Shown in pieces: positions 1,417-53,647 of a stretch of 64,000 bases of DNA. The stretch lies in the NCBI GenBank assembly GCA_964594755.1, contig CAZQMO010000005.1, forward strand, positions 1,144-65,143, written 5' to 3'. Below the pieces are notes generated by a model. It had not been told where the DNA came from, did no database searches, and worked only from the letters and a program-made list of their open reading frames with translations. The stretch is from an uncultured Candidatus Saccharibacteria bacterium (lineage in GTDB: Bacteria; Patescibacteriota; Doudnabacteria; UBA920). The position numbers and the translations under genes are program-made. Every line of letters starts with the position of its first letter. Within the stretch, counting starts at the first letter, position 1.

Positions 1417-1425
1417 AATCGAATA

Positions 1426-2094
1426 TTATTTGCTTGATTTAGCTTCTTGCTTATTCTCGAAGACATCGCCGCGATAGATCCACACTTTAATTCCGATAGT
1501 TCCGTAAGTGGTGTGAGCTGTGGCGCGAGCAAAGTCGATATCAGCACGCATGGTGTGAAGAGGAATCTTACCAGAAGACAATTGTTCTGTTCGAGCAATT
1601 TCTGCACCGTTGAGTCGGCCACCAATGGCAACCTTTACACCCTTAGCACCAGCTTGCATAACATCTTCTAAAGATTTCTTCATCAAACGGCGGAAAGCTA
1701 CACGACGTTCAATCTGTTCAGCAATATTGTTAGCAATCACTTGCGCGTGAAGATTGAATTCGCGGTCCTTGATACCTTCGATGTTCACCTTCAATTCGCT
1801 CTTGATCTTAAGTTGCTTTTTAACACGCTTCTTAAGCTCTTCGATACCAGCACCGCCGTTACCAATAATCAAGCCAGGCTTGGTGGTATGAATAACGATG
1901 GTAATAGTACCGTCATTCAGACGTTCGATATCGATACGAGACAACCCTGCTTTGCGCAAGTGCTTTTCTAAATATTCACGGATGCGAATATCTTCATGCA
2001 ATTGCTCAACATAGTTGCTCTTTGAAAACCACTTGGACTTCCAAGTATCGGTAATCTTTAAACGAAATGAAGTTGGATTAATCTTGTGACCCAT
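1426..2094 (-). CDS. rpsC: 30S ribosomal protein S3
   Basis: 222 aa; MGHKINPTSFRL...; KH-domain GNGGAGIEELKK. Confidence 0.95.
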   Translation of the reverse strand: MGHKINPTSFRLKITDTWKSKWFSKSNYVEQLHEDIRIREYLEKHLRKAGLSRIDIERLNDGTITIVIHTTKPGLIIGNGGAGIEELKKRVKKQLKIKSELKVNIEGIKDREFNLHAQVIANNIAEQIERRVAFRRLMKKSLEDVMQAGAKGVKVAIGGRLNGAEIARTEQLSSGKIPLHTMRADIDFARATAHTTYGTIGIKVWIYRGDVFENKQEAKSSK

Positions 2095-2170
2095 TGGGTA
2101 TAAATAATTCTTGGTTATCGGGCCGTGTCAGGCTGTAACTTTTACAAACTGACAACGCCCGATAACTTTA

Positions 2171-2740
2171 CTACTTAATTAAATTATCTTTGTTAGACTT
2201 CTGCTCTACTGCGGTTGCTTCATTCTCGTGATGAGCTTCCTTAGCTTCCGGCTTAACAGCTACCTTACTAGCTTTTTCGCGAACTGGTTTACCGAGTTGA
2301 CCTTCTTGAGTCTTTACGACAGGTTCTTTCTTAGCAGCTTTTGGAACTTTACTAGCACCTTTCTTGAGCTTAGCTTCACGTTCTTCGAGGATAACGTTGA
2401 CGTGAGCCATCTTGCGACGAATCACGAAGGCGCTTCCACGAGCACGTGGGAAAGAACGCATTAACACCGGTCCCATATCTGTAGTGATTTCTTTGATAAA
2501 CAACTGGTCGCGATTTAAAGAGAAGTTATTCTCAGCATTAGCAGTTGCGCTACGAAGAAGTTTGGAGACCATATCTGCACCCTTCTTGTTAGTGAACTGG
2601 AGTTGCACCAAAGCATCAGCAACGCGCATGTTCTTTACCAAATTGGTAACCAGACGAATCTTGCGAGGAGAAATGCGGAGATTGCGTGCGTGAGCTTTCA
2701 CCAAAGGTTTCTTATTCTGTTGTAAGGCTTCTTTTGCCAT
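2171..2740 (-). CDS. rplV: 50S ribosomal protein L22 with a long Lys/Ala-rich C-terminal extension
   Basis: 189 aa. The N-terminal ~115 aa are L22-like (AHARNLRISPRKIRLV...). The C-terminus is ~70 aa of K/A/E-rich low-complexity sequence. Confidence 0.9.
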   Translation of the reverse strand: MAKEALQQNKKPLVKAHARNLRISPRKIRLVTNLVKNMRVADALVQLQFTNKKGADMVSKLLRSATANAENNFSLNRDQLFIKEITTDMGPVLMRSFPRARGSAFVIRRKMAHVNVILEEREAKLKKGASKVPKAAKKEPVVKTQEGQLGKPVREKASKVAVKPEAKEAHHENEATAVEQKSNKDNLIK

Positions 2741-2764
2741 AAATATAAATTAAGAGACTATTGA

Positions 2765-3049
2765 TTACTTACTAGCTTCAGCTTTTTGTTCCTTAGCTAA
2801 CTTACCACCGTGACCAACGAACTTGCGGGTTGGCGCAAATTCACCGAGCTTGTGACCAACCATGTTTTCGGTAACGAATACTTCGGTGTGTTGGCGGCCG
2901 TTGTGAACGAGAAAAGTAAAGCCAACCATTTCCGGAGCAATGGCACAAGCGCGAGACCAAGTCTTAATTTTGTCGCCAGGCTTGCCGGCAGCAACTTTCT
3001 TGAGGACACGCGGATCAATATATGGACCTTTTTTTAAACTTCTAGACAT
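2765..3049 (-). CDS. rpsS: 30S ribosomal protein S19
   Basis: 94 aa [19 protein letters not shown]...; canonical S19. Confidence 0.95.
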
Positions 3050-3068
3050 AAATAATAGATATTAGCGT

Positions 3069-3911
3069 TTAGCGTTTTTTGGTTCTACGCTTAACAATAA
3101 ATTTAGAGCTTGGCTTCTTCTTATCGCGGGTCTTTACGCCAAGCGCGTGCTTACCCCATGGAGTCTTTGGATACTTCATACCGATAGAGTTGGAACCTTC
3201 ACCACCACCATGAGGGTGATCTACAGGGTTCATCACTTTACCGCGGACTTGTGGACGCCAGCCCATGTGGCGCTTGCGACCAGCTTTTCCGATGCGGACG
3301 TTCATCCAATCAGCGTTTGAAAGAGTACCAATGCTACCAGTAGCAGTATCACGAACTTTGCGGATTTCACCAGATGGCAGTTTGAGGAATGCATAGCCAC
3401 CTTCCATGTTCTGTAAGATGATTCCGCTACCTGCGCTACGAGCTAACTTTCCACCTTGACCAGGAACCAATTCCACATCGTGAATCATGCTTCCGACTGG
3501 AATGTTTGCAAGTGGCAACCGGTTACCAGGATGGATTTCAGCAGTTTCACTGAACATTACAGTATCACCAACTTTAAGGCCAGTAGGAGTTAGAATGAAA
3601 CGCTTCGCGCCGTCCTTGTAAGCAATCAAAGAAATGAAAGCAGTGCGGGTTGGATCGTATTCAATAGTCTTCACTGTGCCTGGGATGTCTTTGCGGTCAA
3701 CGCGAGAGAAATCCACTACGCGAAGCTTTTTACCAGCGCCGCCGCCGCGATGACGAACAGTGATTTTACCACTGTTGTTGCGACCAGCTTGCTTGGTTTT
3801 GCTCACGAGTAAAGACTTCGGGGTCTTCTCTTTCTTGGAAAGCACCGAGTAGTCAGTGACGCTTTGGATACGGCGTCCAGGTGAAGTTGGTTTGTAAAGC
3901 TTAACTGCCAT
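3069..3911 (-). CDS. rplB: 50S ribosomal protein L2
   Basis: 280 aa with the conserved HPHGGGEG motif. Confidence 0.96.
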
Positions 3912-3915
3912 AAAA

Positions 3916-4320
3916 TTAGGTAGGTTCTACGATATTAATCTTCTTGCTGTCTTTGGTCAAAGTTACAATCGCTTTCTTAAAACCGCTGCGTTGGCCAAGA
4001 ACGCGGCCAAAACGACGGGACTTGCCAGCAACGTTTACCATGTTGACGTTGGCCACTTTTACGCCATACATCTTTTCTACTGCGCGGCGGACTTCAATCT
4101 TATTGAGTTTGCCGTAAACAGTAAAGATGTATTGGTTAAAGCGATCAACGAAACCTGCTTTTTCGGACACACGAGGAACAATCAAGCCTTTGTTGCCAAT
4201 ACCGCTGTGAGGAACGTCTAACATAACAGGAGCTGCAGCTTCGGTTGGTTGATCAGTAACAGGAGTTTCTTCTACGGTTACTTTCTCGTCAGTATTTTCT
4301 TTTTTAGAAAAAAGAGCCAT
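3916..4320 (-). CDS. rplW: 50S ribosomal protein L23; start uncertain, possibly the internal Met near 4224
   Basis: The core [10 protein letters not shown]...[10 protein letters not shown] is L23-like. The ORF carries a ~32-aa acidic N-terminal extension that may not be translated. Confidence 0.85.
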
Positions 4321-4493
4321 GTCGTCGTCCTTGTCTTCCGGGCTATCGGTATCAGCTAATGCTAATTCCTATCGCCCTCCGCCAAGTACTCCTCTTAAAT
4401 TTTCGCTTAACTGGCGCCTTCGCTACGACCCTCCTCGTTACACTGCGTCGGGTCGGCTCAGGTTTAGCCCAAGCGAAAATTTATATTTAATGA

Positions 4494-5153
4494 TTACTTA
4501 GTTGCTTTAGATTCTTTAAGATAAGTCTTTTCTATAACTGGCAAACTTTCTTTTATTACGAGCATTGCGTCTGCCTTAAGGATGTCGGTTACATTAAGGC
4601 TAGTAGCCAAAGTGGTTGTGACTTCTGGAAGATTGCGTGAAGCGCGAGCTACACTGTCATCTTTCTTTGGCATCACTACCATCTGCTTCTTGCCGAGACT
4701 GCCGAGCTTAGTGTGGAAAGCGGTCATGAACTTTACGAATTCCTTAGTCTTAGGAGCTTCCAAGTTTACGCCTTCTACGATGATCAACTTGCCGTCTTTA
4801 GCTTTGTCAGATAGGGACATGAATAAAGCTTTAGTCTTGGCTTTCTTGTTGATCTTTAAACTCCAGTTGCGTTCTGAGCGAGGGCCGAAAGTAACACCAC
4901 CGTGACGCCAGATTGGGCTACGAGTGCTACCTGCGCGTGCGCGACCGGTACCCTTTTGACGCCATGGCTTCTTACCACCACCACTCACTTCGCCGCGAGT
5001 CTTAGTGTGCGCAAGGCCCTTACGGGCATTGGAAGCCTGAACGCGAACCGCTTCTGCAAGCAAGTGCAAGGATGGCTTGACGCCAAAAATCTTGTCACTG
5101 ACTTCGATTTCGCCAACGCTTTCGGCGTTCTGATTGTAAACTGCAATTTTCAT
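4494..5153 (-). CDS. rplD: 50S ribosomal protein L4
   Basis: 219 aa, L4-like (GGGKKPWRQKGTGRAR). Confidence 0.93.
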   Translation of the reverse strand: MKIAVYNQNAESVGEIEVSDKIFGVKPSLHLLAEAVRVQASNARKGLAHTKTRGEVSGGGKKPWRQKGTGRARAGSTRSPIWRHGGVTFGPRSERNWSLKINKKAKTKALFMSLSDKAKDGKLIIVEGVNLEAPKTKEFVKFMTAFHTKLGSLGKKQMVVMPKKDDSVARASRNLPEVTTTLATSLNVTDILKADAMLVIKESLPVIEKTYLKESKATK

Positions 5154-6535: not shown

Positions 6536-6582
6536 TTGATTGTTCTAAATACCACGGAAAATCAAAATTTGGAGGAAAATTG

Positions 6583-7152
6583 ATGGGTAAATACGAAAAG
6601 CGTGTTGTTGCTATCGTTAGCATTTTGGTAGGCTTGGCTTCGTTTGGAATCGGTACCTATTTCAGTAATCTCTTTGAGTCGGAAACCGCTCTGCCCTGCC
6701 CTGAACAGGTAAAGAGCGTTGTCCCGATCAAACAGAATCAGGTCAACTACGACCGGCCGGCTCACAAAAGCCGACCCGAGATCATCGCCCAATTCGTCGG
6801 TACATGGAATCGAACCAGAGATGAGTACAACTACTTATCAAAGTTCGAAGCCAAAACGCCCGACTCGTTCGGCGGCGAAATCCAAGCCCTATACCGGGTT
6901 GGAGAAAAATTCTCCGAACTCAGGAATGTAATGGAAGTCAATCAGTTAACCTCGACCGAGGTTGGCGTTAGTCACCAGCAACTTCGCAGGCACGAAGCTC
7001 TGATCTACCGCAGAACATTGGATGCAGTTTACAAACTGCAAAAGATGGGCGGCACCAATCGGTGCCTATTCGAGGGAGGATGCTTCGACACTCCTGAACA
7101 TATCCGGCGAATCGATTCGCATATCACCGGACTCGTTCTGGAATTAGAATAA
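6583..7152 (+). CDS. hypothetical membrane-anchored protein (N-terminal TM helix), GC-richer than its surroundings
   Basis: 190-aa ORF with a strong RBS. The hydrophobic segment is VVAIVSILVGLASFGIGTYF. No motif was recognised. Confidence 0.6.
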   Translation: MGKYEKRVVAIVSILVGLASFGIGTYFSNLFESETALPCPEQVKSVVPIKQNQVNYDRPAHKSRPEIIAQFVGTWNRTRDEYNYLSKFEAKTPDSFGGEIQALYRVGEKFSELRNVMEVNQLTSTEVGVSHQQLRRHEALIYRRTLDAVYKLQKMGGTNRCLFEGGCFDTPEHIRRIDSHITGLVLELE

Positions 7153-7257: not shown

Positions 7258-8112
7258 TTATTCATCAAATTTTCTATTACCAAACATCAATAACTTTTTA
7301 CCTAGACCTGTTAAATTAAGCTTAGCTTTATCCAACTCAATTCGCTGTTGTTGTGAATCAATCTGTGACTGATAACGACGGACATGCTCATGGTTTTCTA
7401 AATCCTGATAAATATAACCTAGAGCGAAACTTTCATTTGCTGGTTTTTCCAAAAGACCCAATGATATCAAATTATCTAAATAAATACTGATATTATTGGG
7501 AAATTTTAGGTTAACTTTTTCAAATAGAATACAAAAATTTCTTTCTAGTAGTAAATACCCTTCTTGATTATTCCTGTATAACTTTATTTCAAGGACAGGT
7601 AAAGAACCTTTCAGATTCACTGAGGATAAATCAGCACTAAAGCCAAATTTAGATCTTATATCTGGGTCTAGGCCATCAAGATTCACCGAATTTTGTGATG
7701 AACCGATATGCTCAAGTATCAATATTTCATCAGAGCTTAATCTATTTAATATTTCTATAAATGTTGGAAGTACTCTACTCGCAGTATCTTTATCAGAAGC
7801 AGTCGCTAAAATCTTTGCATAATAATCAGAAACCACCGATTCATCTGTATATCGAAGTTTTTCTAAAATTGGAACAAGAATACGAGTATCAGGTTCTACT
7901 AAGTTCTGAACAGGAACATTCTCAAGATAATTTATATATTTCAGAATATTCATCTCTAATATTTCTGCCATTCTACCCACGGGTGTAGCAAAAAGTGAAA
8001 CACACTGTGCTAAAGATTTTCCTAAAACTCTAATTGACGGCTGAGCAGCATCTGTATAAACTTCTGCTGCATTAGCCTTTACTATTTCTTTTATCAACTC
8101 ATTTTCATCCAT
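7258..8112 (-). CDS. hypothetical protein, possibly of the Abi-alpha / DUF4393-like (abortive-infection) family
   Basis: AT-rich 284-aa ORF. The N-terminal segment AEVYTDAAQPSIRVLGKSLAQCVSLFATPVG resembles my recollection of the Abi_alpha N-terminal motif. This was not verified by any search. Confidence 0.35.
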   Translation of the reverse strand: MDENELIKEIVKANAAEVYTDAAQPSIRVLGKSLAQCVSLFATPVGRMAEILEMNILKYINYLENVPVQNLVEPDTRILVPILEKLRYTDESVVSDYYAKILATASDKDTASRVLPTFIEILNRLSSDEILILEHIGSSQNSVNLDGLDPDIRSKFGFSADLSSVNLKGSLPVLEIKLYRNNQEGYLLLERNFCILFEKVNLKFPNNISIYLDNLISLGLLEKPANESFALGYIYQDLENHEHVRRYQSQIDSQQQRIELDKAKLNLTGLGKKLLMFGNRKFDE

Positions 8113-8136
8113 AGCTTTACACAATTAAATCATCTA

Positions 8137-8170: not shown

Positions 8171-9352
8171 CTACTTATTGATCTTTACAACTACACCTGC
8201 ACCAACGGTGCGTCCGCCTTCGCGGATAGCGAACTTACCTTTTTCTTCCAAAGCGATCGGAGTGATCAACTTTACGTCGATGGTAACAGTATCACCAGGC
8301 ATAACCATTTCTTGGCCTTCAGGCAAGATTACTTCACCAGTCACGTCGGTTGTACGAACGTAGAACTGTGGTTTGTAACCCTTGAAGAATGGAGTGTGAC
8401 GTCCACCTTCTTCTTTGGTCAAGATGTAAACTTCAGCAGAGAACTCAGTGTGAGGAGTGATAGAACCAGGCTTAGCCAAAACTTGGCCGCGCTCTACTTC
8501 TTCTTTCTTAACACCACGGAGCAATAGACCAGCGTTGTCACCAGCCATACCCTTGTCCAACTGCTTGTTGAACATTTCGATACCAGTTACAACTGTCTTT
8601 GAAGTTGGTTTGATACCAACGATTTCAACTTCTTCGTTGATGTTGATGATACCACGTTCGATACGTCCGGTAACAACAGTACCGCGACCTTCGATAGTGA
8701 AGATATCTTCAATTGGCATCAAGAAAGGCTTATCGGTTTCGCGAGTTGGTTCAGGGATGAAAGTATCCAAAGCTTCAACGAGCTTAAGGATGGTTTCTTC
8801 GTTAGCCGCATCGCCTTCGAGAGCCTTTAATGCAGAACCACGGATGATTGGGGTATCGCTACCCGGAAATTCGTACTTGTTAAGAAGATCACGAATTTCT
8901 TCTTCTACTAGATCCAAAAGTTCTGGATCGGAAACTTGGTCTACCTTGTTCATGTAAACAACGATAGAAGGTACACCTACCTGACGAGCGAGCAAGATGT
9001 GTTCGCGAGTCTGAGGCATAGGACCGTCTGCAGCGGATACAACGAGAATCGCACCGTCCATTTGAGCAGCACCGGTAATCATGTTCTTGATGTAGTCGGC
9101 GTGACCAGGACAGTCTACGTGAGCGTAGTGGCGCTTGTCGGATTCGTATTCGCTGTGTGAGGTATTAATAGTAATACCACGAGCTTTTTCTTCTGGCGCG
9201 TTGTCGATTTGGTCGTAAGCCTTAGCTTTAGCCTTACCGGACTTCGCAAGCACAGTAGTGATAGCAGCGGTCAAAGTAGTCTTACCGTGGTCAACGTGAC
9301 CAATGGTACCCACATTCAAATGGGGCTTTGAGCGATCAAATGCTTCTGCCAT
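8171..9352 (-). CDS. tuf: elongation factor Tu
   Basis: [32 protein letters not shown]...; GTPase motifs are present. The ORF-track start at 9403 is an upstream in-frame extension. Confidence 0.96.
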
Positions 9353-9631
9353 TTGTTGCCTTTCAACTAGATAATTGTTGGTTGGGTTTCGAGATACCCT
9401 CACTCCTTCCCCTATCGATACGAGGAAAAAGAGAGGGTTTCTCTTTTTTTCACAAAGGAATCCAGAAACTCCAGACGGGAATTATATAGTTGTGTTAATG
9501 ATTATAAAATTGGCGGCTAAACTAGCGCCAATCAGTAAGTATTTTAATGGTTTATCACAGGAACGTCAAGTTGCCTGACTAAAGTAAATGTGGCACAATG
9601 AAGCCATCATAGCAGAGGAGGTTATCATTCC

Positions 9632-9892
9632 ATGTCATACCGGCTTCTTAAAGTGCATTGGGTAAAATACCGCGGCGCAAAGAAAATCCGAGACCTCTAT
9701 TCCTACCACCGGTCGGAAAAAGAGATTGCGGCATTCCGCATTCGCCTAGACAGACGGAATAAAAAACGGTTCAGCTTGTTCCATTACTCAATCGGCTGCA
9801 AAGGTTTTGTGAAGGTTTCTGGAAACCTTGCGCACAAAGTTTTGCACTCTGAGTTTGGCATCTGGCATCGTGAAGAAAAACAGCCTGCGTAA
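9632..9892 (+). CDS. hypothetical small basic protein (86 aa)
   Basis: Strong SD (ggaggt) 8 nt upstream. The stop lies in the loop of a terminator hairpin. No recognisable domain. Confidence 0.5.
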   Translation: MSYRLLKVHWVKYRGAKKIRDLYSYHRSEKEIAAFRIRLDRRNKKRFSLFHYSIGCKGFVKVSGNLAHKVLHSEFGIWHREEKQPA

Positions 9893-9907
9893 CGCGGGCT
9901 GCTTTTT
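9881..9907. terminator. bidirectional intrinsic terminator shared by convergent genes
   Basis: cagcctgcg-taa-cgcgggctg has a 9-bp stem with one G-U pair, followed by TTTTT. The stop codons of both flanking genes lie inside it. Confidence 0.7.
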
Positions 9908-10349
9908 ATATATCTTCAAAACTGGGCTTGATTTCTTCGTCCTCGGCAATAGAAATAGTCGGACTAGCCGTGCGCTGCATAGCTGGATGTTCGCTTTCTT
10001 CGCGCGGGTCATAATTGATTTCATCCATAGTAGGAGGTGCGGGTTTGGATACAAATAAGTTTTGAGCTCGTTCCTGTAGGATCTGGCCAATGGATTCAGG
10101 CATGGCAACTTCGGCTTGTATCGTTTCCAAGTTATGATTACTTGGCGCAATATTGTCCTTAAGTTGCGCTTCTAAGATCTCCCGATTAATTGTTTCTGGG
10201 TCAATCCGGGTAGCAATAGCATCTGACTGTGGGTGGATTTTTTGATACTCAGCGTATGTTATAAATATCCCTTTTACATCACCATCATCACCAACAACAA
10301 CCACTTTCCCCTGTTGTCCAGCGAGTTTTAATAATTCTTTTAGGTTCAT
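9906..10349 (-). CDS. hypothetical acidic protein; the N-terminal ~40 aa are reminiscent of a Phd/YefM-type antitoxin fold
   Basis: 147 aa. GKVVVVGDDGDVKGIFITYAEYQKI resembles the YefM pattern. The C-terminal 100 aa are acidic and low-complexity. The overlapping 120-aa ORF (9788-10150) is judged spurious. Confidence 0.45.
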   Translation of the reverse strand: MNLKELLKLAGQQGKVVVVGDDGDVKGIFITYAEYQKIHPQSDAIATRIDPETINREILEAQLKDNIAPSNHNLETIQAEVAMPESIGQILQERAQNLFVSKPAPPTMDEINYDPREESEHPAMQRTASPTISIAEDEEIKPSFEDI

Positions 10350-10415
10350 ATCTACAGTATACTTGGCTGATTCTGAGCTATCAAGTGAACATAATTTATG
10401 GTTTGATCAATCTGA

Positions 10416-11261
10416 TTAAATTTTAGTTGCGGCTAAAACCCAAAAAAGTAACAACCCAAATAGGCCATTTATAAATGGAAAGTACCAATATACTTTTCGG
10501 ATTTCTTCCATGCTTTTTGGCAGCAACCACAAGCAAGCTGCCACATAAACCAGTGATAGCAAAGCTGACCAAGGCAGCCAAAAGTCAGCAACCACCAAAG
10601 CCGCAGTTGAACCTAACCACAGCACTGAACAAAGCAATAAAGATTTTTTTACCCCTAAAACAACTGCGGTAGTTTTTAGGTTAGCTTGACTATCAGCTTG
10701 AATATCTGGCACGGCAGAAAAGATATGCATAGCAGCGGTCCAGCACCATGCAGCCACAACTGCCCAGATTGGCGGCCAATCCCCGCTCAGCATGGCGTAA
10801 CCAGCAAAACCAATCACCGCATAATGTACATTAGAGATTGCATCAATTGCGGGCTTGGATTTAAAACGCAATGGCTCGGAACTATAAGCCCAAGCTAAAA
10901 ATAAAAAAATTGAGATTAAAATTTGGGTAGGTAGGTTTGGGGCCAGAATAACTAAAATTATACCAATCACAATGCACAACCAGACCCATAATCGCAAAGC
11001 TTTCGATTCTGGTCGCTGAAGTAAATGTTCTTGTTGGCCCTTCTTCTCGTTATAAGGATCGGTATCATCATCAAACAAATCATTCACGCCATAAATAAAT
11101 ATATTTGCGGGGATAATAAAATAACAAAAGTAAAGAATCACTTGCCAATTCAGCAAATCATAAATTGTGTTACTACCAGCGATTGCTCCAACTAAAAAAG
11201 TACCACCAGCATACAACCAAAATCTTGGTCGTGAAATTATTAATAAAGTTGTTAAGTTCAT
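10416..11261 (-). CDS. UbiA-family polyprenyltransferase (membrane)
   Basis: 281 aa with ~8 TM segments and the Asp-rich motif NDLFDDDTD. It is adjacent to the polyprenyl synthase and the CrtM/CrtN-like genes. Confidence 0.7.
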   Translation of the reverse strand: MNLTTLLIISRPRFWLYAGGTFLVGAIAGSNTIYDLLNWQVILYFCYFIIPANIFIYGVNDLFDDDTDPYNEKKGQQEHLLQRPESKALRLWVWLCIVIGIILVILAPNLPTQILISIFLFLAWAYSSEPLRFKSKPAIDAISNVHYAVIGFAGYAMLSGDWPPIWAVVAAWCWTAAMHIFSAVPDIQADSQANLKTTAVVLGVKKSLLLCSVLWLGSTAALVVADFWLPWSALLSLVYVAACLWLLPKSMEEIRKVYWYFPFINGLFGLLLFWVLAATKI

Positions 11262-12314
11262 TTATTTTATTCGAACCATTAAATAATCAATTAAGCTATC
11301 AAAAGCTTCTTGTTGTTTAACTGAAAACGGTAACTGGCGCGATAATTTGAGTGCCTGCACTTGCTGGGCTAGTAATTCTTTCTGTGCCAAGTCATCGATT
11401 TTATGCTCAATCATCTTACTAAGCACCCAGTTCTGCTGTTTAGCGGTTAATAATTGTTTACGATTGTATAAAGCTAGTAAAGTTTGTTTATCCTGACCAG
11501 ACAAACTCTTTAAAGTTTGATAGTAAAGCCAAGTAAGTTTGCGTTCTCGGATATCTCCACCTACAGATTTGCCAGTTTGCTTAGAGTTCCCAAACACCCC
11601 GAGAATATCATCACGGATCTGGAAAATCACACCCATACATTCAGCCAACTGCTGTGTTCGTTTATAAACCTTGGTGGTATATTTACCAGACAAATGAAAG
11701 CCGGCCAGCAATGGTAAAGCGAAGGTATAACGCCCGGTTTTTTGTATATATATTCTGGTAATCTTTTTAAGGTCAGGCTTACGACCAGCCGTAGCCATAT
11801 CAACGTCGTCCATTTGAGCGAAACCTAGATTGACCATTTCATCAGAAAAAAGTTTAATCAACTCCGGCTGAACTTTTTTTGTCGAACCTAAAAGCCCTAC
11901 TGCTAAAAAATAACTGACAATTGCTACACAACTAGCCAAGCTTTCGCCGTAATGCAGTTGCTCTTTTGGTAATAGTCCCGCAAGAGAGTTTTGGTACTGA
12001 GTATGAATAGTTGGTTGACCGCGCCGCTCAGTATCGCGATCCATAATATCATCATGAATTAAAATTCCTGAATGCATTAACTCTAATGCTGCGCCTACTT
12101 TAACTGCATCAGCTTTCACAGAAGCACTCCCTGAATCAGCGGCCAGCACCACTAAACTGCCACGCACCAACTTCCCCGCGCTAGCAAATTTCTGCAAGCG
12201 ATTTAAAGCGTCTTTCGACCACACATACCCTAACCCACTTTTTTGTGAATTTTTAAAAGCTTTGCCCAGCTCAGCTACTAGCAGTTTTTTATAATCTACA
12301 AATGTTTTATTCAT
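11262..12314 (-). CDS. polyprenyl diphosphate synthase (trans-IPPS; CrtE/IspA-like)
   Basis: 350 aa. The first Asp-rich motif is LIHDDIMD. The second region is FQIRDDILGVFG. Confidence 0.75.
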   Translation of the reverse strand: MNKTFVDYKKLLVAELGKAFKNSQKSGLGYVWSKDALNRLQKFASAGKLVRGSLVVLAADSGSASVKADAVKVGAALELMHSGILIHDDIMDRDTERRGQPTIHTQYQNSLAGLLPKEQLHYGESLASCVAIVSYFLAVGLLGSTKKVQPELIKLFSDEMVNLGFAQMDDVDMATAGRKPDLKKITRIYIQKTGRYTFALPLLAGFHLSGKYTTKVYKRTQQLAECMGVIFQIRDDILGVFGNSKQTGKSVGGDIRERKLTWLYYQTLKSLSGQDKQTLLALYNRKQLLTAKQQNWVLSKMIEHKIDDLAQKELLAQQVQALKLSRQLPFSVKQQEAFDSLIDYLMVRIK

Positions 12315-13150
12315 GGAACCAATTGCTTAATTGCCGATAATACAATGCGTTTTCTCGATACACTGACTTTTTCTTCCAGCACAATGAGAGGGTCTGCTTC
12401 GATCACAGAAATAACTTGATCAAATGCTTCAGTAGCTGCTCGGATAGCTAACTGATAGCGTTTTGGGATAAATGAGAATCCAGCTTCTGACTGTGTACGC
12501 CAATCTTTATACAAAGCGATCTGCTCCAACATAAACTGACTAAACTCTTTTGGTTTTGCTTTTGCAACACTGATGGTAAGACTTGAGAAACCGTATCTTT
12601 GATAACTGTCTTTAGGGAAATATACTCGCCCTAATTCATAATCTTCTTTAAAATCTCTTATCATATTCATGTACTGAAACGCTCGCCCAAGCATCTTAGC
12701 CGAAAAATCTGCCTCAATTGGTAAGTTCATCAAACGAGCCATCATTAAACCAATAACTTCAGCCGAACCATAGATGTAATGCAAGGTCTCATCGAGATTG
12801 TCATACTGGCTTTTATGCAAGTCCATATTCATTGAACCAAAAAATGCATCCACCCAACTCTGTTCAAAGGCATATTTTTTTTGTAAAAGCACAAAGCGAT
12901 CAATAATTGGCTCGCCTGAAACTTTACCTTGCACAGCTCCTTGATACAAAGACCAAAAGTTATTAAACTCTTTAACTTTTTGTGGCAGTACGTCCACATA
13001 ATTATCCGCTGTTCTCACAAAAGCATACAGATCAAAAACATCCCGTCGGAGCTTGCCTGGGAAAAATAAGCTAGCAGTGAAAAATGTTTTACTGCCTTGT
13101 TTAAAAATATTAAAGTTTTGCAAATTAGCTAACATGATCTTGTCTAACAT
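12311..13150 (-). CDS. phytoene / dehydrosqualene synthase family protein (CrtB/CrtM-like)
   Basis: 279 aa. Motifs YAFVRTADNYVD, YIYGSAEVIGLM and NMIRDFKEDYELGRVYFP match the squalene/phytoene synthase family. Confidence 0.65.
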   Translation of the reverse strand: MLDKIMLANLQNFNIFKQGSKTFFTASLFFPGKLRRDVFDLYAFVRTADNYVDVLPQKVKEFNNFWSLYQGAVQGKVSGEPIIDRFVLLQKKYAFEQSWVDAFFGSMNMDLHKSQYDNLDETLHYIYGSAEVIGLMMARLMNLPIEADFSAKMLGRAFQYMNMIRDFKEDYELGRVYFPKDSYQRYGFSSLTISVAKAKPKEFSQFMLEQIALYKDWRTQSEAGFSFIPKRYQLAIRAATEAFDQVISVIEADPLIVLEEKVSVSRKRIVLSAIKQLVP

Positions 13151-14600
13151 TATCCCTAGCCAATTGGCCAGAAATTAAAGTCATAGGAACACCAATCCCT
13201 GGCTGGGTAAATTGCCCTACAAAGTATAGGTTATGAACTTTTTTGCTTTTAGTCCTTGGTCTAAACAATGATGTTTGACTTAAAGTGTGACTCAAGCCTA
13301 GAGCCGTACCTTTATATGCATTATAATCAGCCGAAAAGTCATTCAAAGAAAAAAGTCTTTTTACCTTAACGGCATCAGAAACTGTTTGGCCAATACTTTT
13401 TTCAAAATGATTAATGATTTTATGATAATACTGATCTCGAATTTCCAATGTGTCTTCTAATCCGCTAGCAATCGGCACTAAAAAGAATAAATTCTCGGAT
13501 CCTTCTGGCGCAACATCTGAATCTGTCTGCGACGGGCAACAAACGTAATACGAAGGGTCAGATGGCCAAGCTGGCTTTTGAAAAATTGCATTAAAATGCC
13601 GCACCCAATCATTGTCCAAAAACAACATATGGTGCTTCACATTAAGAAGCTTCTTGCTCAGCCCAAGATAAATAATGAACGCCGATGGCGCCATAGTGCG
13701 CTTTTGCCAGTAACTTTCACTATAAGTGCGATCGGATACCTCAAGCAATTGTGTTTCAACATGATGGTAATCAGCATTAGCAACGACAATGTCACAAGGA
13801 TACGTTTGCTTGTCAGTTTCTACCGAAACAGCTTGACCATTTTGTGTATGCACCGCAAGAACATTCTCTTCAAATATAAATTTTGCTCCATACTCTTCAG
13901 CCAATTTTCTGATACCCTCTGCTACTGCGCCAAAACCACCCATGGGATACCAGACTCCAAGATTAAAGTCAGCATGATTAATGACCGAATATAAAGCTGG
14001 GGTATTTTTTGGAGCACCCCCCAGAAAAACCATACTGTACTCTAGAATTTTGCGTAGTTTTTCTGATTTAAAAAACCTTTGAGTGAAGGCGTCTAAGTTT
14101 TGAAAAACATGTAACTTACTACCTTCGATTAGCATTCGTTTATTAAAAAAATCAAATACTGATCGAAAATCTTTATACAAAAATTCTTTCATAGAAACTT
14201 CGTACTGGTATCGAGCTTGCTTCAAATATTCCTGGAGTTGTTTACCAGCACCTGGCTCAATTGATTCAAATAACTCCATGTTCTTTTGTAAAGAAGCTGC
14301 AATATCTACGAACTCATCCTGAAAATAAATCCGGTAGGAAGGATCGAGTCGATGGAGCTGATAATAATCACTTGGCTTCTTACCAAACTCAGCAAAAAAA
14401 TTTTCGAAGGCATCTGGCATCAAATACCAAGAAGGGCCCATGTCAAACTTAAAACCGGCCTCTCGCCAAACTCGAGCCCGGCCACCTATGCTATTATTTT
14501 TTTCGATAACAGTTACATTGTATCCGTCTTTAGCAAGAAAAGCAGCTACGCTTAACCCACCAAAGCCGGCGCCAATTACAACTACATTTTTTGGCGTCAT
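13125..14600 (-). CDS. FAD-dependent carotenoid desaturase of the CrtI/CrtN family, closest by eye to CrtN (diapophytoene desaturase)
   Basis: 491 aa. It has an N-terminal Rossmann fold VVVIGAGFGGL. EKNNSIGGRARVWREAGFKFDMGPSWYLMPD parallels Staphylococcus CrtN EKNNNVGGR...GFTFDMGPTIVMMPD. The C-terminus is LYFVGQFTQPGIGVP. Confidence 0.65.
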   Translation of the reverse strand: MTPKNVVVIGAGFGGLSVAAFLAKDGYNVTVIEKNNSIGGRARVWREAGFKFDMGPSWYLMPDAFENFFAEFGKKPSDYYQLHRLDPSYRIYFQDEFVDIAASLQKNMELFESIEPGAGKQLQEYLKQARYQYEVSMKEFLYKDFRSVFDFFNKRMLIEGSKLHVFQNLDAFTQRFFKSEKLRKILEYSMVFLGGAPKNTPALYSVINHADFNLGVWYPMGGFGAVAEGIRKLAEEYGAKFIFEENVLAVHTQNGQAVSVETDKQTYPCDIVVANADYHHVETQLLEVSDRTYSESYWQKRTMAPSAFIIYLGLSKKLLNVKHHMLFLDNDWVRHFNAIFQKPAWPSDPSYYVCCPSQTDSDVAPEGSENLFFLVPIASGLEDTLEIRDQYYHKIINHFEKSIGQTVSDAVKVKRLFSLNDFSADYNAYKGTALGLSHTLSQTSLFRPRTKSKKVHNLYFVGQFTQPGIGVPMTLISGQLARDNVRQDHVS

Positions 14601-14632
14601 TTGATTCAGTATAATGGATTTTTAAGAAAAAT

Positions 14633-14660
14633 AAAAACCGCCCAATTTTGGGCGGTTTTT
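14633..14660 (-). terminator. intrinsic terminator after fusA
   Basis: aaccgccc-aatttt-gggcggtt hairpin flanked by A/T runs. Confidence 0.65.
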
Positions 14661-14668
14661 GATTTCAG

Positions 14669-16792
14669 TTATTGTCCCTTACGGACGTTCATTCCAGCAC
14701 GAGACTCTATGATTGTAGCAGCTACGTTCTTGGGAACTTCTTCGTAATGATCGAATTCCATTATAGAAGATGCTTGGCCTTGAGTTAAGCTGCGGAGCTG
14801 TGTCGCGTAACCGAACATTTCGGCAAGCGGTACAAACGCAGTAATAACTTTACGACCGGTAATGTCTTCCATGTCTTGGACTTTAGCTCGCTTGGAGTTT
14901 AAGTCGCCGATGACGTCACCCATGTTGGCTTCGGGGGTAGTAACAACGACCTTCATCACAGGCTCCAAGAGTACTGGATTACCTTTCTTCACGGCTTCTT
15001 GCAAACACTTTGAAGCAGCAATTTTGAAAGCCATTTCCGAAGAGTCAACTTCGTGATAACTTCCATCGTACAGCGCGGCCCGGAAGTCTACTAATGGGTA
15101 TCCAGCGATAACACCGTTAGCAGCAGATTCTTGAATACCTTTATCAATTGGCTTGATATATTCTTTTGGAATTACACCACCAACGATTTCATCAACGAAT
15201 TCATAACCTTTACCAGATTCAAGCGGTTCAACGCGCAAGTATACGTGACCATATTGACCACGACCACCAGACTGACGAATGTATTTTACTTCAGCAGTAG
15301 CAGTATTGCGGAAGGTTTCCTTGTAAGCAACTTCTGGCTTACCAACGTTAGCTTCAACTTTGAATTCGCGCTTCATGCGGTCTACCAAAATTTCCAAGTG
15401 AAGTTCACCCATACCAGCAATAATTGTTTGCTGGGTTTCTTCGTTAGAAGAAACATTGAAAGTCGGATCTTCTTCGGCAAGCTTTTGCAAAGCAATACCC
15501 ATTTTTTCTTGGTCAGCTTTGGTCTTTGGCTCAATAGCCATGGAAATAACTGGATCTGCGAACTTGATCTTTTCTAATTCAATTGGCGCATTTTCGGCAC
15601 AAAGAGTGTCGGCAGTGATAGTGTCTTTTGGACCTACCAACGCACAAATGTCACCAGCGAATACTTCTTTCACTTCATCACGTTGGTCAGCGCGCATACG
15701 CACGATACGGCCAACGCGTTCTTTGTTGCCAGTACGAGCGTTAAGCACGTAAGAGCCAGCAGTCAAAGTTCCGGAATAAACGCGGAAGAAAGCTAAGCGA
15801 CCTACGAATGGGTCGGTTGCAATCTTGAAAGCCAATGCAGTGAAAGGTTCGCTGTCGTCTGGCTTGCGTTCTAATTCTTCACCAGTCTTGGGGTTGTGAC
15901 CTTTAACTGGTCCTTTGTCGGTTGGAGATGGCAGGAAGTTAGCAACACCATCAAGCAATGTGCGCACGATAATCCCACGACCGTCGCCACCAAATACAGG
16001 ATAAAATTCACCGCTCTGAACCGCCTTACGAATAGTCAAAAGTAATTCTTCTTCGGTTAAGCCTTCACCACCAAGATACTTTTCCATCATAGCTTCGTCG
16101 TATTCCACGACTTTTTCGATAAGCTCTTGGCGATACTGCTCGGCCTTTTCTTTCATGTCAGCAGGAACTTCACCAATTGTGAATTCTTTATCGGTGTAGT
16201 CCTTGTAAGTGTAGGACTTCATTCCAACTAAATCTACAACACCTACAATGTCTTTTTCGAAACCGATCGGCAGTTGAACTGGGAAAGCGTTTTTGGTGAG
16301 ACGGTTGTGGATGGATTCCAAAGACTTATAAAAGTCGCCGCCGGTTTGGTTGATTTTGTTAATGAAACACATGCGAGGTACGCCGTACTTGTCAGCTTGG
16401 CGCCACACAGTTTCGGATTGGGGCTCTACACCCATTTTACCGTCAAAGACGGTAACTGCACCGTCGAGCACGCGCAAAGAGCGCTCTACTTCTACGGTAA
16501 AGTCTACGTGACCAGGAGTGTCAATGATGTTAATCTTGCACTCTTTGTCGCCGTCTAATTTTAAATACTGAGGCTTCCAGTAACAGGTTACCGCCGCAGA
16601 AGTGATAGTGATACCACGTTCCCGTTCTTGTTCCATCCAGTCGGTTACAGTTTCACCTTCGTGAACCGCACCGATTTTGTGAACCATACCAGTGTTGTAC
16701 AAGATACCTTCGGTAGTTGTAGTTTTACCAGCATCAATGTGAGCGATAATCCCGATATTACGGGTTGCTTCTATTGGATATTCTCTAGGCAT
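14669..16792 (-). CDS. fusA: elongation factor G
   Basis: 707 aa; [28 protein letters not shown]... Confidence 0.96.
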
Positions 16793-16805: not shown

Positions 16806-17318
16806 TTATTTTCTCTTGCTACCAAAGCGGGCAAAGTGAGCAAACGCTTTGTTTGCTTCAGCCATACGGTGAGTGTCTTCACGCTTCTTTACAGCAGCAC
16901 CCATTTTATTGAATGCGTCAATAACTTCTTGAGCAAGCTTCTCGGCCATTGGCGCGCCTTTGCGGGCGCGAGCTGCAGCAATCATCCACTTCATACCAAG
17001 GGCTGTGCGGCGAGGTTCCTGCACTTCCATAGGAACTTGGTAGTTAGAACCACCAATCCGGCGACCTTTGATTTCCATGATTGGAGAAACATTCTTTAAA
17101 GCGATATCAAAGACTTGGCGGGAATCAGTAACTTCCGCCTCTTTGTTTGCTTTCATTTTATCTTCAACAATAACGAGCGCATTGTAAAAAATCTTTTGCG
17201 CAACGCTCTTTTTGCCGCGTTCCATTAAATAGTTAATAAACTTGGCGTACTTCACGCTAGAAAATTGTGGATCTGGCAGTGGAGTGTGTTTTTCAAAACT
17301 TCGTGCTCTTCGTGGCAT
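16806..17318 (-). CDS. rpsG: 30S ribosomal protein S7
   Basis: 170 aa, S7-like; follows rpsL. Confidence 0.93.
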   Translation of the reverse strand: MPRRARSFEKHTPLPDPQFSSVKYAKFINYLMERGKKSVAQKIFYNALVIVEDKMKANKEAEVTDSRQVFDIALKNVSPIMEIKGRRIGGSNYQVPMEVQEPRRTALGMKWMIAAARARKGAPMAEKLAQEVIDAFNKMGAAVKKREDTHRMAEANKAFAHFARFGSKRK

Positions 17319-17412: not shown

Positions 17413-17841
17413 TTACGCTGCTGATGCAGCTGGCTTCTTAGCGCCATATTTCGAACGAGAGCGCCGACGACCTTCAACGCCTAAGGTGTCCAACTTACCA
17501 CGAACAATGTGATAACGAACACCAGGTAAATCTTTTACACGACCACCGCGGATCATCACCACGCTGTGTTCCTGCAAGTTGTGACCAACACCAGGAATAT
17601 ACGCAAGTACTTCCATACCGTTAGTCAGTTTGATCTTTGCAACTTTACGCAAAGCAGAGTTTGGCTTCTTTGGAGTGGTTGTGTACACCTTTAAACATAC
17701 ACCGCGCATAAATGGCGCGCCGGTTGGGATGTGCAAAACCTTGTTCTTAATCAAGTTCTGGCGGCGTTGCAATGCCGGAGACTTTGATTTGGCCTTCTGC
17801 AGCTTGCGCGGCTTGCGGACCAATTGGTTAATAGTAGGCAT
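17413..17841 (-). CDS. rpsL: 30S ribosomal protein S12
   Basis: [13 protein letters not shown]...; highly conserved S12. Confidence 0.96.
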
Positions 17842-17910
17842 TTCGTCCAAATTTTACTCACTTGCTCGCGTCCGCTCCGCTATGCGGCCGTCTCGCTCGC
17901 CTGTTCGTAA

Positions 17911-24153: not shown

Positions 24154-25245
24154 TTATCGCATCATTAGAATATACCAGCAAGCCAGGAATACTATTGTCC
24201 ACCATCCTAAGAACGAAATAATAAAGCTTAAAAAGATTTTGCTCTGTATGGAATCCGGCAAAATTTTTGCAATATCTCCGTCCTTTTCTCTTTGCAATAA
24301 TCTTGGGCTGACGTAAAAAGTTAAGAACAAACCGTTTATAATCAAAATTACCAATAAAACTGCTTGGAAGAAAGCAACACCAGTCAGCCAGCTCTCTCTG
24401 TACATAATCCCAAAACCTGATAATAACAAAAGTAGTCCAAGCCATATCAAAGGCTTAGTTACTTTATGGGCCCGGATGGTAGACTCAGTCCAATACTCTG
24501 ACTTACGCCCGAGAAAACCTAATGTATCAATAACTGTTACGGCACCTAAGCCAATAATTAGCCCAGCAAACATCAAAAACAGTCCCAACAACTCTAGCCA
24601 TGGCACCTGTTGATCTCCTACTAACCCCAACTTCAGCATGAATACGTTTTGAAGCAGACTCAAAAAATTAGCGTCTTCAAAATTTTCTACCGTACCAACA
24701 CCTAAAGTATAATCACCAATTTGCTCAGTGGGTTCGTCTACAATAAGAAAATAATTTTGCTTAACTTGCACTTCCAGCTGATATTGCTCACTTTTCCAAT
24801 ATCTTTCAAAACTATACTCTTCGTAAAAATTGCCGTCTTGGTGAGTATTGGCGATTTTCATCAAACTATAACCTTCCGGCAAAGTCGCTTGAATTTCATC
24901 ATTTACAACCACTCTGTCTCTCGGGATATTTTTGGCTGCAATATATAAATTAGGAAAAAAATTCTCGTTCGCTGTCCGCATAGGCACCAAGATTTCTACA
25001 GGTATAGTTGCTCGATTCTCTGGTACAAATACAAATACATCCCTCTGCCCCGGCTCACTTAGTAGACCATAAACAGCTTGTGAGGTAACTGTGGGATCCT
25101 GCAGTGTCGTAGCTTGAAAATAAACTGACTGCTGAGTAACAGCACCCTCACCCGACGGTTCAATGATTGGTTGATGACCAAAAACTTGCGTTGGTAAAAT
25201 AACCGAAGCAAGTACGATTGTAAAAATTATTTGTTTAATTGCCAT
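24154..25245 (-). CDS. hypothetical membrane protein (signal peptide, extracytoplasmic domain, C-terminal TM bundle)
   Basis: Start assigned to MAIKQIIFTIVLASVILPTQVFG. The ORF-track start at 25329 overlaps the upstream gene. Confidence 0.5.
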   Translation of the reverse strand: MAIKQIIFTIVLASVILPTQVFGHQPIIEPSGEGAVTQQSVYFQATTLQDPTVTSQAVYGLLSEPGQRDVFVFVPENRATIPVEILVPMRTANENFFPNLYIAAKNIPRDRVVVNDEIQATLPEGYSLMKIANTHQDGNFYEEYSFERYWKSEQYQLEVQVKQNYFLIVDEPTEQIGDYTLGVGTVENFEDANFLSLLQNVFMLKLGLVGDQQVPWLELLGLFLMFAGLIIGLGAVTVIDTLGFLGRKSEYWTESTIRAHKVTKPLIWLGLLLLLSGFGIMYRESWLTGVAFFQAVLLVILIINGLFLTFYVSPRLLQREKDGDIAKILPDSIQSKIFLSFIISFLGWWTIVFLACWYILMMR

Positions 25246-25691
25246 ATTTCTTTCGTGAGTTTTGTTGCAATCGCTACCCAAATTAGATATGGAACTAATA
25301 GTAAGGCTGGTAATAAGTAAGTTGGCCACATAATGATGATCGCTATAATCGTACTAATATTTAAATAAATCATCTGCTTGTAAGCTTTTGCTATGTTATG
25401 CTCCACAAAAAAAGTTCTATTCCAGATAATATTTAGATAACCATTAACGAGCATCACCGCTAACAGCACCCAACTCCAAACACTTATCTGCGTAACAGTC
25501 CAAAACAACAGCATTGAGACCAAAATCAATAAATATAAAAATATCCAAATTTCCTTGATTAATTTCCGAGAAGGAGTCCAACTTGGTTTGCGCAAACTTT
25601 GGTACCAGTCCAAACCTTGTTTGGTATATTTAGTGCCACGGTAAGCCACTAAAGCGACTAGAATTGGAATAATAAAATAACTAATTTTCAT
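25227..25691 (-). CDS. TspO/MBR family (tryptophan-rich sensory protein)-like membrane protein
   Basis: 154 aa with 5 TM segments. WYQSLRKPSWTPSRKLIKEIWIFLYLLILVSMLLFW resembles the TspO N-terminal consensus. Confidence 0.55.
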   Translation of the reverse strand: MKISYFIIPILVALVAYRGTKYTKQGLDWYQSLRKPSWTPSRKLIKEIWIFLYLLILVSMLLFWTVTQISVWSWVLLAVMLVNGYLNIIWNRTFFVEHNIAKAYKQMIYLNISTIIAIIIMWPTYLLPALLLVPYLIWVAIATKLTKEIWQLNK

Positions 25692-53390: not shown

Positions 53391-53467
53391 GCACCCGTAG
53401 CTCAGCTGGATAGAGCGTTCGCTTGCGGAGCGAGAGGTCATAGGTTCGAATCCTGTCGGGTGCACCA
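53391..53467 (+). tRNA. tRNA-Arg with the unusual anticodon GCG
   Basis: Manual cloverleaf: acceptor GCACCCG/CGGGUGC; D GCUC-AGCUGGAUA-GAGC; anticodon stem UUCGC/GCGAG with loop UUGCGGA; T AUAGG-UUCGAAU-CCUGU; CCA encoded. Confidence 0.7.
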
Positions 53468-53570: not shown

Positions 53571-53647
53571 GGCCTCGTAGCTCAGTTGGATAGAGCAGGG
53601 GACTTCTAAGCCCAAGGTCACTGGTTCGATCCCAGTCGAGGCCACCA
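53571..53647 (+). tRNA. tRNA-Arg (anticodon UCU), flanked by an 11-bp leader/trailer inverted repeat (53548-53558 and 53646-53656)
   Basis: Acceptor GGCCUCG/CGAGGCC; D-arm GCUC-AGUUGGAUA-GAGC; anticodon loop CUUCUAA; T-arm ACUGG-UUCGAUC-CCAGU; CCA encoded. The anticodon stem shows two non-Watson-Crick closing pairs in my fold. Confidence 0.7.

Follow-up and report, generated by a model that had tools for sequence, protein, structure and literature searches.

Gene content and transcription signals between fusA and tuf

We analysed a 64-kb stretch of Candidatus Saccharibacteria DNA, referred to below as the window, in which the genes from rpsL to tuf that are listed next all lie on the minus strand. 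In minus-strand order, rpsL (17413-17850), rpsG (16806-17318) and fusA, encoding EF-G (14669-16792), are followed by five co-directional open reading frames (ORFs) and then by tuf, encoding EF-Tu (8171-9352). The first four of these ORFs, at 10416-14600, probably form an operon that stands on its own, crtI(D)-crtB-idsA(crtE)-lyeJ, whose product would be a bacterioruberin-type carotenoid, acyclic and elongated, and which is carried as cargo of a slot between fusA and tuf. An earlier examination of the same DNA from its letters alone (the sequence-only reading) had described a 4.7-kb co-directional isoprenoid/carotenoid block between fusA and tuf in a reduced-genome organism; the five ORFs were found there, and the genome type agrees with the Candidatus Saccharibacteria host.

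All four enzyme genes could be assigned at the family level, with Pfam domain matches far above chance. The first, crtI(D) (13125-14600, minus strand like the three that follow), encodes a flavin adenine dinucleotide (FAD)-dependent desaturase of the CrtID type of 491 amino acids (aa; Amino_oxidase, E 1e-34). It is followed by a crtB-like gene for a 279-aa SQS_PSY protein (12311-13150; PF00494, E 1.6e-48, 166 bits), an idsA/crtE-like gene for a 350-aa prenyl diphosphate synthase (11262-12314; PF00348, polyprenyl_synt, E 3.4e-49) and a lyeJ-like gene for a 281-aa UbiA prenyltransferase (10416-11261; UbiA, E 2.2e-27). The crtI and crtB reading frames overlap, the stop codon of crtB and the start codon of idsA share the tetranucleotide ATGA, and the idsA/lyeJ junction reads TAA-ATG. 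Four enzyme genes that overlap or abut in this way have the layout of an operon, as in translational coupling.

The nearest public locus, L001, comes from an uncultured Saccharibacteria metagenome-assembled genome (MAG), and its RpsL, RpsG, EF-G and EF-Tu proteins are 98-99% identical to those of the window (98% for EF-Tu; for fusA, 98.7% at the aa level and 92.5% at the nucleotide (nt) level, with a synonymous divergence, dS, of 0.40). The fusA-crt-tuf junctions are the same in L001 and in L084, which are independent assemblies, and the cassette is 100% identical in a further locus, L081, so the block is not an assembly artefact. The window is MAG-derived and its CrtI has no exact match in a contig index, as might be expected of a relic, of contaminant DNA or of a chimeric assembly; exact look-ups also returned no contigs for RpsG and EF-Tu, and only a 4.4-kb Logan contig for the UbiA protein. 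Such an origin is barely credible in view of the repeated junctions, the intact and coupled ORFs, a proportion of nonsynonymous differences (pN) far under that of synonymous differences (pS) and a native base composition, the last two being described below.

The fusA gene, a conserved core gene with a 707-aa ORF that forms the upstream flank of the slot, is directly followed past its stop codon by an intrinsic terminator (14633-14660, minus strand; 12-bp stem with six GC pairs, then a T-run), and an equivalent hairpin occupies the same place in L001 and L097. A -10-like TATACT (14608-14613, minus strand) lies 7 nt ahead of the crtI ATG at 14600. We found neither a convincing -35 box upstream of this hexamer nor a Shine-Dalgarno sequence ahead of the ATG. 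A similar spacing was seen in relatives, with TATAAT plus 7 nt in L001 and TATAAT plus 6 nt in L086. The hairpin and the TATACT bear out the earlier description of a separate, terminator-bounded transcription unit after fusA with a leaderless-looking first gene. The crtI promoter is likely to be leaderless or near-leaderless, and transcription of the operon would start from this promoter of its own, behind the fusA terminator. The pattern is, however, window-wide: 11 of the 52 window genes have a hexamer that matches TATAAT at five or more of its six positions and ends 5-9 nt ahead of the start codon (for example at the starts 41535, 45584, 56023, 54889, 52273 and 33057), against an average of 2.3 in equal-sized bins farther upstream, an approximately 4.7-fold excess near starts. 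A Shine-Dalgarno sequence is absent at most window genes. Initiation of the leaderless type seems to be common throughout this Saccharibacteria genome and is nothing special to the crt operon.

Assignment of the four enzymes and the predicted pathway

For calibration we used the annotated cluster of a Halocatena salina replicon (L087), which contains crtI, a prenyltransferase gene and cruF (bisanhydrobacterioruberin hydratase), with a phytoene synthase gene about 350 nt beyond. The NCBIfam equivalog NF058655 ('bifunctional phytoene desaturase/3,4-desaturase CrtID') has a curated cutoff of 640 bits. The window desaturase scored 716.1 bits on this model, residues 6-480 aligning with model positions 1-476 of 478, and the Halocatena CrtI(D) scored 749.5 bits; the two proteins are 46% identical (E 5e-149). 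The nearest entries in the PDB were 4REP and 4DGK, and no CrtN model was present among the top NCBIfam matches. These matches predict that the 13125-14600 product is a CrtID-type phytoene desaturase / 3,4-desaturase combining both activities. The name of the model refers to such a double activity, which knockout and complementation have demonstrated in Haloarcula japonica, where C0507 and D1086 each act as CrtI and as CrtD in the synthesis of bacterioruberin (PMC11946383).

The UbiA protein was assigned with the equivalog NF009516 (PRK12875), which holds the haloarchaeal lycopene elongase/hydratase LyeJ and has a cutoff of 205 bits. The window protein reached 287.7 bits on this model (Halocatena LyeJ, 426 bits), against 119 bits on PRK13595 and 118.5 bits on PRK13105, the sister models. 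MenA, UbiA and MqnP models gave 18-32 bits for cutoffs of 264-392, and quinone, chlorophyll and tocopherol prenyltransferase models remained at noise level. The Arthrobacter elongase scored 403 bits on PRK13105 and hence belongs to another NCBIfam family than the window protein. Identity to Halocatena LyeJ is 38% (E 2e-54). Both Asp-rich motifs of UbiA enzymes are present, NDLFDDDTD (NDxxDxxxD) and PDIQAD (DxxxD), and Saccharibacteria and haloarchaeal LyeJ proteins have in common SRPRFWLY, NDxxDxxxD, SAxPDIxxD and YWxFPxIN (YWYFPFIN in the window). SRPRFWLY and SAxPD do not occur in the Arthrobacter PRK13105 elongase, of which the fetched part ends before the C-terminal motif. Several homologues bear the JGI label 'lycopene elongase/hydratase', and lyeJ stands in one cluster with a CrtID-type desaturase gene in L001-L004, L006, L048, L082-86, the Pyrinomonadaceae loci described below and Halocatena. 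The 10416-11261 product is presumed from this set of similarities to be a lycopene elongase/1,2-hydratase.

A homologue of LyeJ could nevertheless have an activity other than double C5 elongation. It might, for example, only hydrate, elongate once to C45 or use a different prenyl donor, which would yield a hydroxylated C40 or a C45 carotenoid in place of a C50. The identity to the haloarchaeal enzyme is no more than 38%, cruF was not found at the locus, and members of the family occur widely, in Asgard, Woesearchaeota, Thermoplasmatota and further lineages without a known product; a preprint calls the Heimdallarchaeial homologue a 'putative' elongase only. We consider this unlikely, as the protein keeps both Asp-rich motifs together with the family-specific N- and C-terminal ones and passes the NF009516 cutoff, and as lyeJ is in every case linked to a gene for a CrtID-type desaturase, just as in haloarchaea.

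The two remaining enzymes are identified less directly. In the CrtB-like protein two DxxxD motifs can be read in the translation (ADNYVD and RDFKED), and among annotated proteins Pantoea CrtB is matched best (about 30% identity, E 4e-23). The prenyl diphosphate synthase has an intact first aspartate-rich motif (FARM), DDIMD, and a second one (SARM), DDxLG, that is present in all seven of seven Saccharibacteria homologues. Its family membership and motifs suggest that the 11262-12314 product is a short-chain trans-prenyl diphosphate synthase, presumably a geranylgeranyl diphosphate (GGPP) synthase.

Put together, these assignments would give the following pathway. The prenyl diphosphate synthase would supply GGPP, CrtB would join two GGPP into phytoene, and the CrtID-type desaturase would convert phytoene into lycopene. 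The LyeJ-type UbiA enzyme would then transfer a C5 unit from dimethylallyl diphosphate (DMAPP) onto C-2 and hydrate the 1,2 double bond, after which the same CrtID-type desaturase would put in a 3,4 double bond; repetition of the LyeJ elongation/hydration and the 3,4-desaturation at the other end of the molecule would produce a C50 diol resembling bisanhydrobacterioruberin, or else a C45 intermediate. The carotenoid would be located in the membrane, which it may stiffen and protect against light and oxidative damage. A search with Halocatena CruF (tblastn) found no CruF in the window, L001, L002, L082 or L084-86, and gave matches in L048 and in Acidobacteria loci. Because no CruF was found, the predicted endpoint is the bisanhydrobacterioruberin (BABR) stage.

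Several observations weigh against this pathway. A Bacteroidota CrtI without a lyeJ neighbour also passes NF058655, with 750.5 bits, so this model marks a CrtI clade and not C50 chemistry as such. The CrtB-like protein is below all NCBIfam equivalog cutoffs (CrtB models, 92.8/480, 91/500 and 78/550 bits), and its nearest structures in the PDB are of the CrtM type (5IYS, 1.7e-17; 8IS6, 2.5e-17). The prenyl synthase is likewise below all equivalog cutoffs (encapsulin-cargo polyprenyl transferase, 157/450; GGPP_syn, 107/500), and the residues at -5/-4 before its FARM, G and I, make no clear chain-length call. A distant cruF may lie elsewhere in the genome and would alter the predicted end point, and a Saccharibacteria genome from Lake Baikal has cruF far from lyeJ (PMC9948471). 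We detected no gene of the methylerythritol phosphate (MEP) or mevalonate C5 pathways among ORFs of at least 120 aa in the 64-kb window; rhodopsin, blh and crtY were also absent from this ORF set. Freshwater classes of the candidate phyla radiation (CPR) except Gracilibacteria, Saccharimonadia included, are reported to have only the C10-C20 isoprenoid steps (PMC9166423). With this report and no C5 gene in the window, isopentenyl diphosphate (IPP) and DMAPP must come from somewhere.

The weak scores of the SQS_PSY protein bear on a C30 route, in which enzymes of the CrtM/CrtN type would make a 4,4'-diapocarotenoid that the UbiA enzyme then prenylates. Both the CrtM-type structures and the failure at the CrtB cutoffs would suit it. 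The CrtM structures, however, match the synthase at 1e-9 to 1e-17, no better than its CrtB matches, of which the best are to the bona fide Pantoea enzyme. PDB or NCBIfam scores alone do not separate CrtB from CrtM; the protein reaches only the SQS_PSY family level by score, and its CrtB role is assigned by context. To our knowledge, C30 clusters use farnesyl diphosphate (FPP) and normally have no prenyl diphosphate synthase of their own, whereas this operon has one. Its desaturase passes the CrtID equivalog, with CrtN models not among the top matches, and its UbiA partner is of the LyeJ type, for which the known substrate is C40 lycopene. A C30 product is thus very unlikely. The CrtN/CrtM identification made in the sequence-only reading does not stand, given the CrtID score of 716 bits, the 46% identity to haloarchaeal CrtI(D), the LyeJ-type UbiA protein and the operon's own prenyl synthase; its suggestion that the UbiA enzyme hints at an elongated product survives in spirit, but not as the elongation of a C30 pathway.

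Even less probable is that these are squalene/hopanoid (HpnCDE) or quinone (MenA/UbiA plus IspB) genes with no part in a carotenoid pathway. HpnD is the top NCBIfam match of the SQS_PSY protein, at 104.6 bits, and Cupriavidus HpnD is matched with E 9e-17. The cutoff of that model is however 278.6 bits, and HpnC (92.1/250.5) and HpnE (47.9/283) also score far under theirs, as do the MenA, UbiA and MqnP models mentioned above for the UbiA protein. Neither a squalene-hopene cyclase gene nor quinone-ring genes were found nearby, and both the desaturase and the prenyltransferase score above the cutoffs of carotenoid-pathway equivalogs. The earlier examination had named top matches to HpnCDE or to MenA/IspB as an outcome that would refute its reading; the scores on the Hpn and MenA models are far under the cutoffs.

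Location of the cassette and evolution of the fusA-tuf slot

We then compared the bacterioruberin-type cassette across related loci. The order crtI-crtB-idsA-lyeJ is kept in at least seven Saccharibacteria contigs and in at least four genomic contexts, the same four genes being present in the same order in L001, L002, L082/83, L084, L085 and L086. The cassette lies between fusA and tuf in the window, L001 and L084; a few kb upstream of rpsL in L002, behind genes for TspO and a 365-aa membrane protein, and in L085, where a photolyase gene and then DUF1761 follow; after murB in L082/L083; and beside a helix-turn-helix (HTH) regulator in L086, no extra genes being noted in the last two contexts. 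In a neighbour-joining (NJ) tree the CrtI proteins of the Saccharibacteria cassettes are monophyletic, with subclades that match genomic location. One side of this tree holds the lyeJ-adjacent CrtI of Saccharibacteria, Gammaproteobacteria MAGs, Acidobacteria and Halocatena; it also includes a Thermoplasmatota CrtI from a locus without a lyeJ match. A class II cyclobutane pyrimidine dimer (CPD) photolyase gene (TIGR00591, 643 bits) lies directly 3' of lyeJ in L084 (10852-12225) and L085 (7708-9072), and a GT2 glycosyltransferase gene follows lyeJ in L001 (12185-12901). These neighbours hint at a light-protection module and at a glycosylated product in some relatives.

Related gene sets were also observed in other lineages. 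In L048, from another Saccharibacteria MAG lineage, lyeJ (minus strand), cruF (plus) and crtI (plus) are found at 1417-4621, and its CrtI groups with those of Pyrinomonadaceae (Acidobacteria). Many Pyrinomonadaceae/'Chloracidobacterium' MAGs (L034, L046, L049 and others) have crtB-crtI with adjacent lyeJ and cruF, which by gene content is a full bacterioruberin-type set in Acidobacteriota. The closest CrtI proteins from outside Saccharibacteria (51-53% identity) are those of L003, L004 and L006, in MAGs labelled Gammaproteobacteria, and of L005 (Thermoplasmatota). In L003, L004 and L006, with the bin assignment taken as labelled, a lyeJ homologue is near crtI, in the order crtI-crtB-lyeJ in L003 and L006; L005 has crtI-crtB with no lyeJ match and only a weak CruF-like match. 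The sequence-only reading had held such a pathway to be unexpected in a reduced-genome organism. For this lineage that view was superseded by the report of lyeJ, crtD and cruF in Patescibacteria, a Saccharibacteria genome included (PMC9948471).

The window also contains a TspO/MBR (CrtK-like) gene (25227-25691, minus strand) followed by a gene for a 391-aa membrane protein that faintly matches DUF4149 (24154-25329, minus strand). Their orthologues in L002 (6434-7982) directly precede crtI, at a distance of 3 nt. We rejected a tie between TspO and the cassette, since TspO is present in the crt-less L094 and is found upstream of crtI in L002 only; the association may be positional only.

Downstream of lyeJ, the fifth ORF of the interval encodes an acidic 147-aa protein (9906-10349, minus strand; pI 4.47). 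It has a promoter-like TTGATA-17-TATACT of its own (10356-10384, minus strand), inside the 66-nt gap after lyeJ and 6 nt ahead of its ATG, and L001, L084 and L094 keep a -10 box 6-7 nt from the start codon; for this ORF the geometry recurs in four divergent loci. A bidirectional terminator hairpin (9881-9901) separates this ORF from the convergent orf86 (9632-9892, plus strand), a conserved ORF for a basic protein of 86 aa (pI 10.44), which runs antisense to the operon and diverges from tuf. The tuf gene, with its true ATG at 9352, is the downstream flank of the slot and has promoter-like sites of its own at 9569-9541 and 9508-9481, in a promoter region of about 280 nt. Rfam and tRNA scans detected no known RNA in the 550-nt spacer at 9353-9905 or elsewhere near the block.

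Both small ORFs are residents of this interval. The acidic family is small, with 16 homologue clusters among 5.8 billion proteins, and it was always found in the fusA-tuf spacer, including in the crt-less loci L089-92, L094, L096 and L097 (for example L089, 6253-6732; L094, 10001-10519; L096, 2049-2468; L097, 7962-8405). Its C-terminal tail, EEIKP[NS]F[DE]DI, is near-invariant, with six invariant residue columns, and its central helices are conserved. From its position and this tail we predict a connection with translation, possibly as a partner of that machinery specific to the lineage. No Pfam match was obtained at E<=1 save a chance-level Ku_C; Foldseek against the PDB returned nothing below E 0.2, the top matches being CBS half-domains, with an AF2 model that is poor (pLDDT 64.5). 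An identity as a Phd/YefM antitoxin was rejected, as we found no PF02604-type domain or fold and no co-oriented toxin gene, and the label YefM-like given to this ORF earlier had to be dropped. The orf86 product has no family match. The gene has a GGAGG ribosome-binding site upstream and is 100% identical at the aa level and 98.8% at the nt level in L001, despite the saturated block beside it; equivalent genes of 84-90 aa are called in L090 and L094.

The acidic ORF splits fusA from tuf in all the related Saccharibacteria loci that we examined. Since crt-less relatives also have it there, this ORF and the small antisense one already lay between the two genes in this lineage. The sequence-only reading had seen an insertion into an otherwise contiguous fusA-tuf pair, and had counted the acidic ORF as inserted too; neither idea fits a spacer resident with its own promoter. 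Its caveat that the fusA-tuf spacing might be ancestral holds for the spacing itself but not for the crt cassette, which is variable cargo. Between fusA and the acidic ORF, L089-92 have pilin-like genes, L094 has an M48 peptidase gene, and L096 and L097 have nothing. Several different cargoes can occupy the stretch from the fusA terminator to the acidic gene, and the crt cassette is one of them.

The divergence between the window and L001 differs between the block and its flanks. In crtI, crtB, idsA, lyeJ and the acidic ORF synonymous sites are saturated (pS 0.69-0.79), with pN of 0.10-0.18, which indicates strong purifying selection together with a coalescence much deeper than that of the flanks, where dS is 0.06-0.80. 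Identity of 97-98% at the nt level resumes exactly at the terminator of the acidic ORF. The acidic protein is 84% identical to that of the crt-less L089 and 72% to that of L001, the opposite of fusA, for which the nt identities are 86% and 92%. It should be weighed against exchange at the slot that the dS of the block could be raised partly by a weaker codon constraint than in translation genes; four non-ribosomal flank genes have a low pS, of 0.27-0.49, which counters this account.

The cassette lies within or just past one standard deviation (SD) of the window genes in GC content, GC content at third codon positions (GC3) and codon usage. A recent foreign acquisition was rejected on these three measures, and a comparison of 10416-14600 with its flanks, proposed earlier as a check, revealed a native composition and no foreign signature. 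A mobile-element insertion was also rejected, border repeats, an integrase and a transposase not being found at the block. By comparison of these sequences the cassette has probably been resident in Saccharibacteria for a long time, with alleles or cargo exchanged by homologous recombination through the flanks, in which the conserved fusA and tuf would serve as recombination arms.

Other accessory genes were noted in the window. An Abi_alpha (abortive infection) gene (7258-8124, minus strand) is the clearest compositional outlier (GC 0.32, GC3 0.20). Together with an ORF of 190 aa (6580-7152, plus strand) it separates tuf from rpsJ, where L001 and L084 have different genes; as these genes lie there, a second normally tight ribosomal junction, tuf-rpsJ, is also an accessory-gene slot. 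A tyrosine recombinase gene (Phage_integrase; 50370-51335, plus strand) lies about 2 kb from two tRNA-Arg genes (53391-53467 and 53571-53647, plus strand); it may be a housekeeping gene of the XerC/D type or the mark of an integrated element.

Comparison with known carotenoid clusters and implications for Saccharibacteria

The closest known arrangement is the haloarchaeal crtD(crtID)-lyeJ-cruF cluster of Haloarcula japonica, Halobacterium salinarum and Halocatena salina (L087), with crtB nearby, in which a CrtID-type desaturase gene and lyeJ are clustered as they are here. Both window proteins pass the same equivalogs as their Halocatena counterparts, at 46% identity for CrtI(D) and 38% for LyeJ, and the LyeJ motifs are common. 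Unlike the haloarchaeal cluster, the window cassette has no cruF, so that its product is expected to stop at the BABR stage, and it has crtB and a dedicated prenyl diphosphate synthase gene between the desaturase gene and lyeJ. The host also differs, being a bacterial ultra-small symbiont in which the genes occupy a replaceable slot inside the str/S10 region.

The actinobacterial C50 clusters, such as Corynebacterium crtE-crtB-crtI-crtYe/Yf-crtEb, Micrococcus crtE2 and the Arthrobacter bacterioruberin genes, follow the same operon logic, in which a GGPP synthase, a phytoene synthase, a desaturase and a UbiA-type lycopene elongase are combined. They differ in their elongase, the Arthrobacter enzyme reaching 403 bits on PRK13105 and the window protein 118.5, and the window has no C50 cyclase genes. 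The staphyloxanthin-type C30 cluster (crtM/crtN) is similar in that an SQS_PSY synthase and a CrtI-family FAD desaturase are encoded in one operon, whereas the window combines a CrtID-type desaturase, a prenyl diphosphate synthase and a LyeJ-type elongase and has no crtP-, crtQ- or crtO-like genes.

Within Patescibacteria, lyeJ, crtD and cruF were found with custom hidden Markov models (HMMs) in Lake Baikal genomes and in a Saccharibacteria long-read genome (Haro-Moreno et al. 2023, PMC9948471). The host is the same at the phylum level and the genes are those of the same inferred C50 pathway. They were however described as unclustered, with cruF far off, whereas the window has a tight four-gene operon that includes crtB and the prenyl synthase gene, in an order conserved in at least seven contigs and in a defined, variable fusA-tuf slot. 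The pathway type is known and key genes had already been reported in this group; what is new here is the well-organised operon and its slot. Known carotenoid enzymology is left unchanged by the cassette.

A light-exposed lifestyle is suggested for some of these organisms, because a CPD photolyase gene adjoins the cassette. It would fit the rhodopsins that are known in freshwater Saccharibacteria. CPR bacteria and Saccharibacteria are generally regarded as having neither lipid nor C5-isoprenoid synthesis and as living off their hosts. Our broader proposal is a tentative one, which we put forward as possible and not as the favoured outcome: Saccharibacteria without a detectable C5 pathway or lipid synthesis might build their own C50 carotenoid from host precursors, the cassette, with or without the photolyase or glycosyltransferase gene, acting as one of several interchangeable light or surface modules that related Saccharibacteria exchange by homologous recombination through the near-invariant fusA and tuf arms. 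The required supply of IPP and DMAPP points to a metabolite hand-off with the host. A conserved operon that is under selection and serves a membrane-spanning carotenoid of the C50 type implies that the cells make an investment of their own in membrane reinforcement or photoprotection. The fusA-tuf spacer is a compact, readily recognised replaceable slot between universally conserved genes and may serve as a marker for accessory-gene flux in the phylum.

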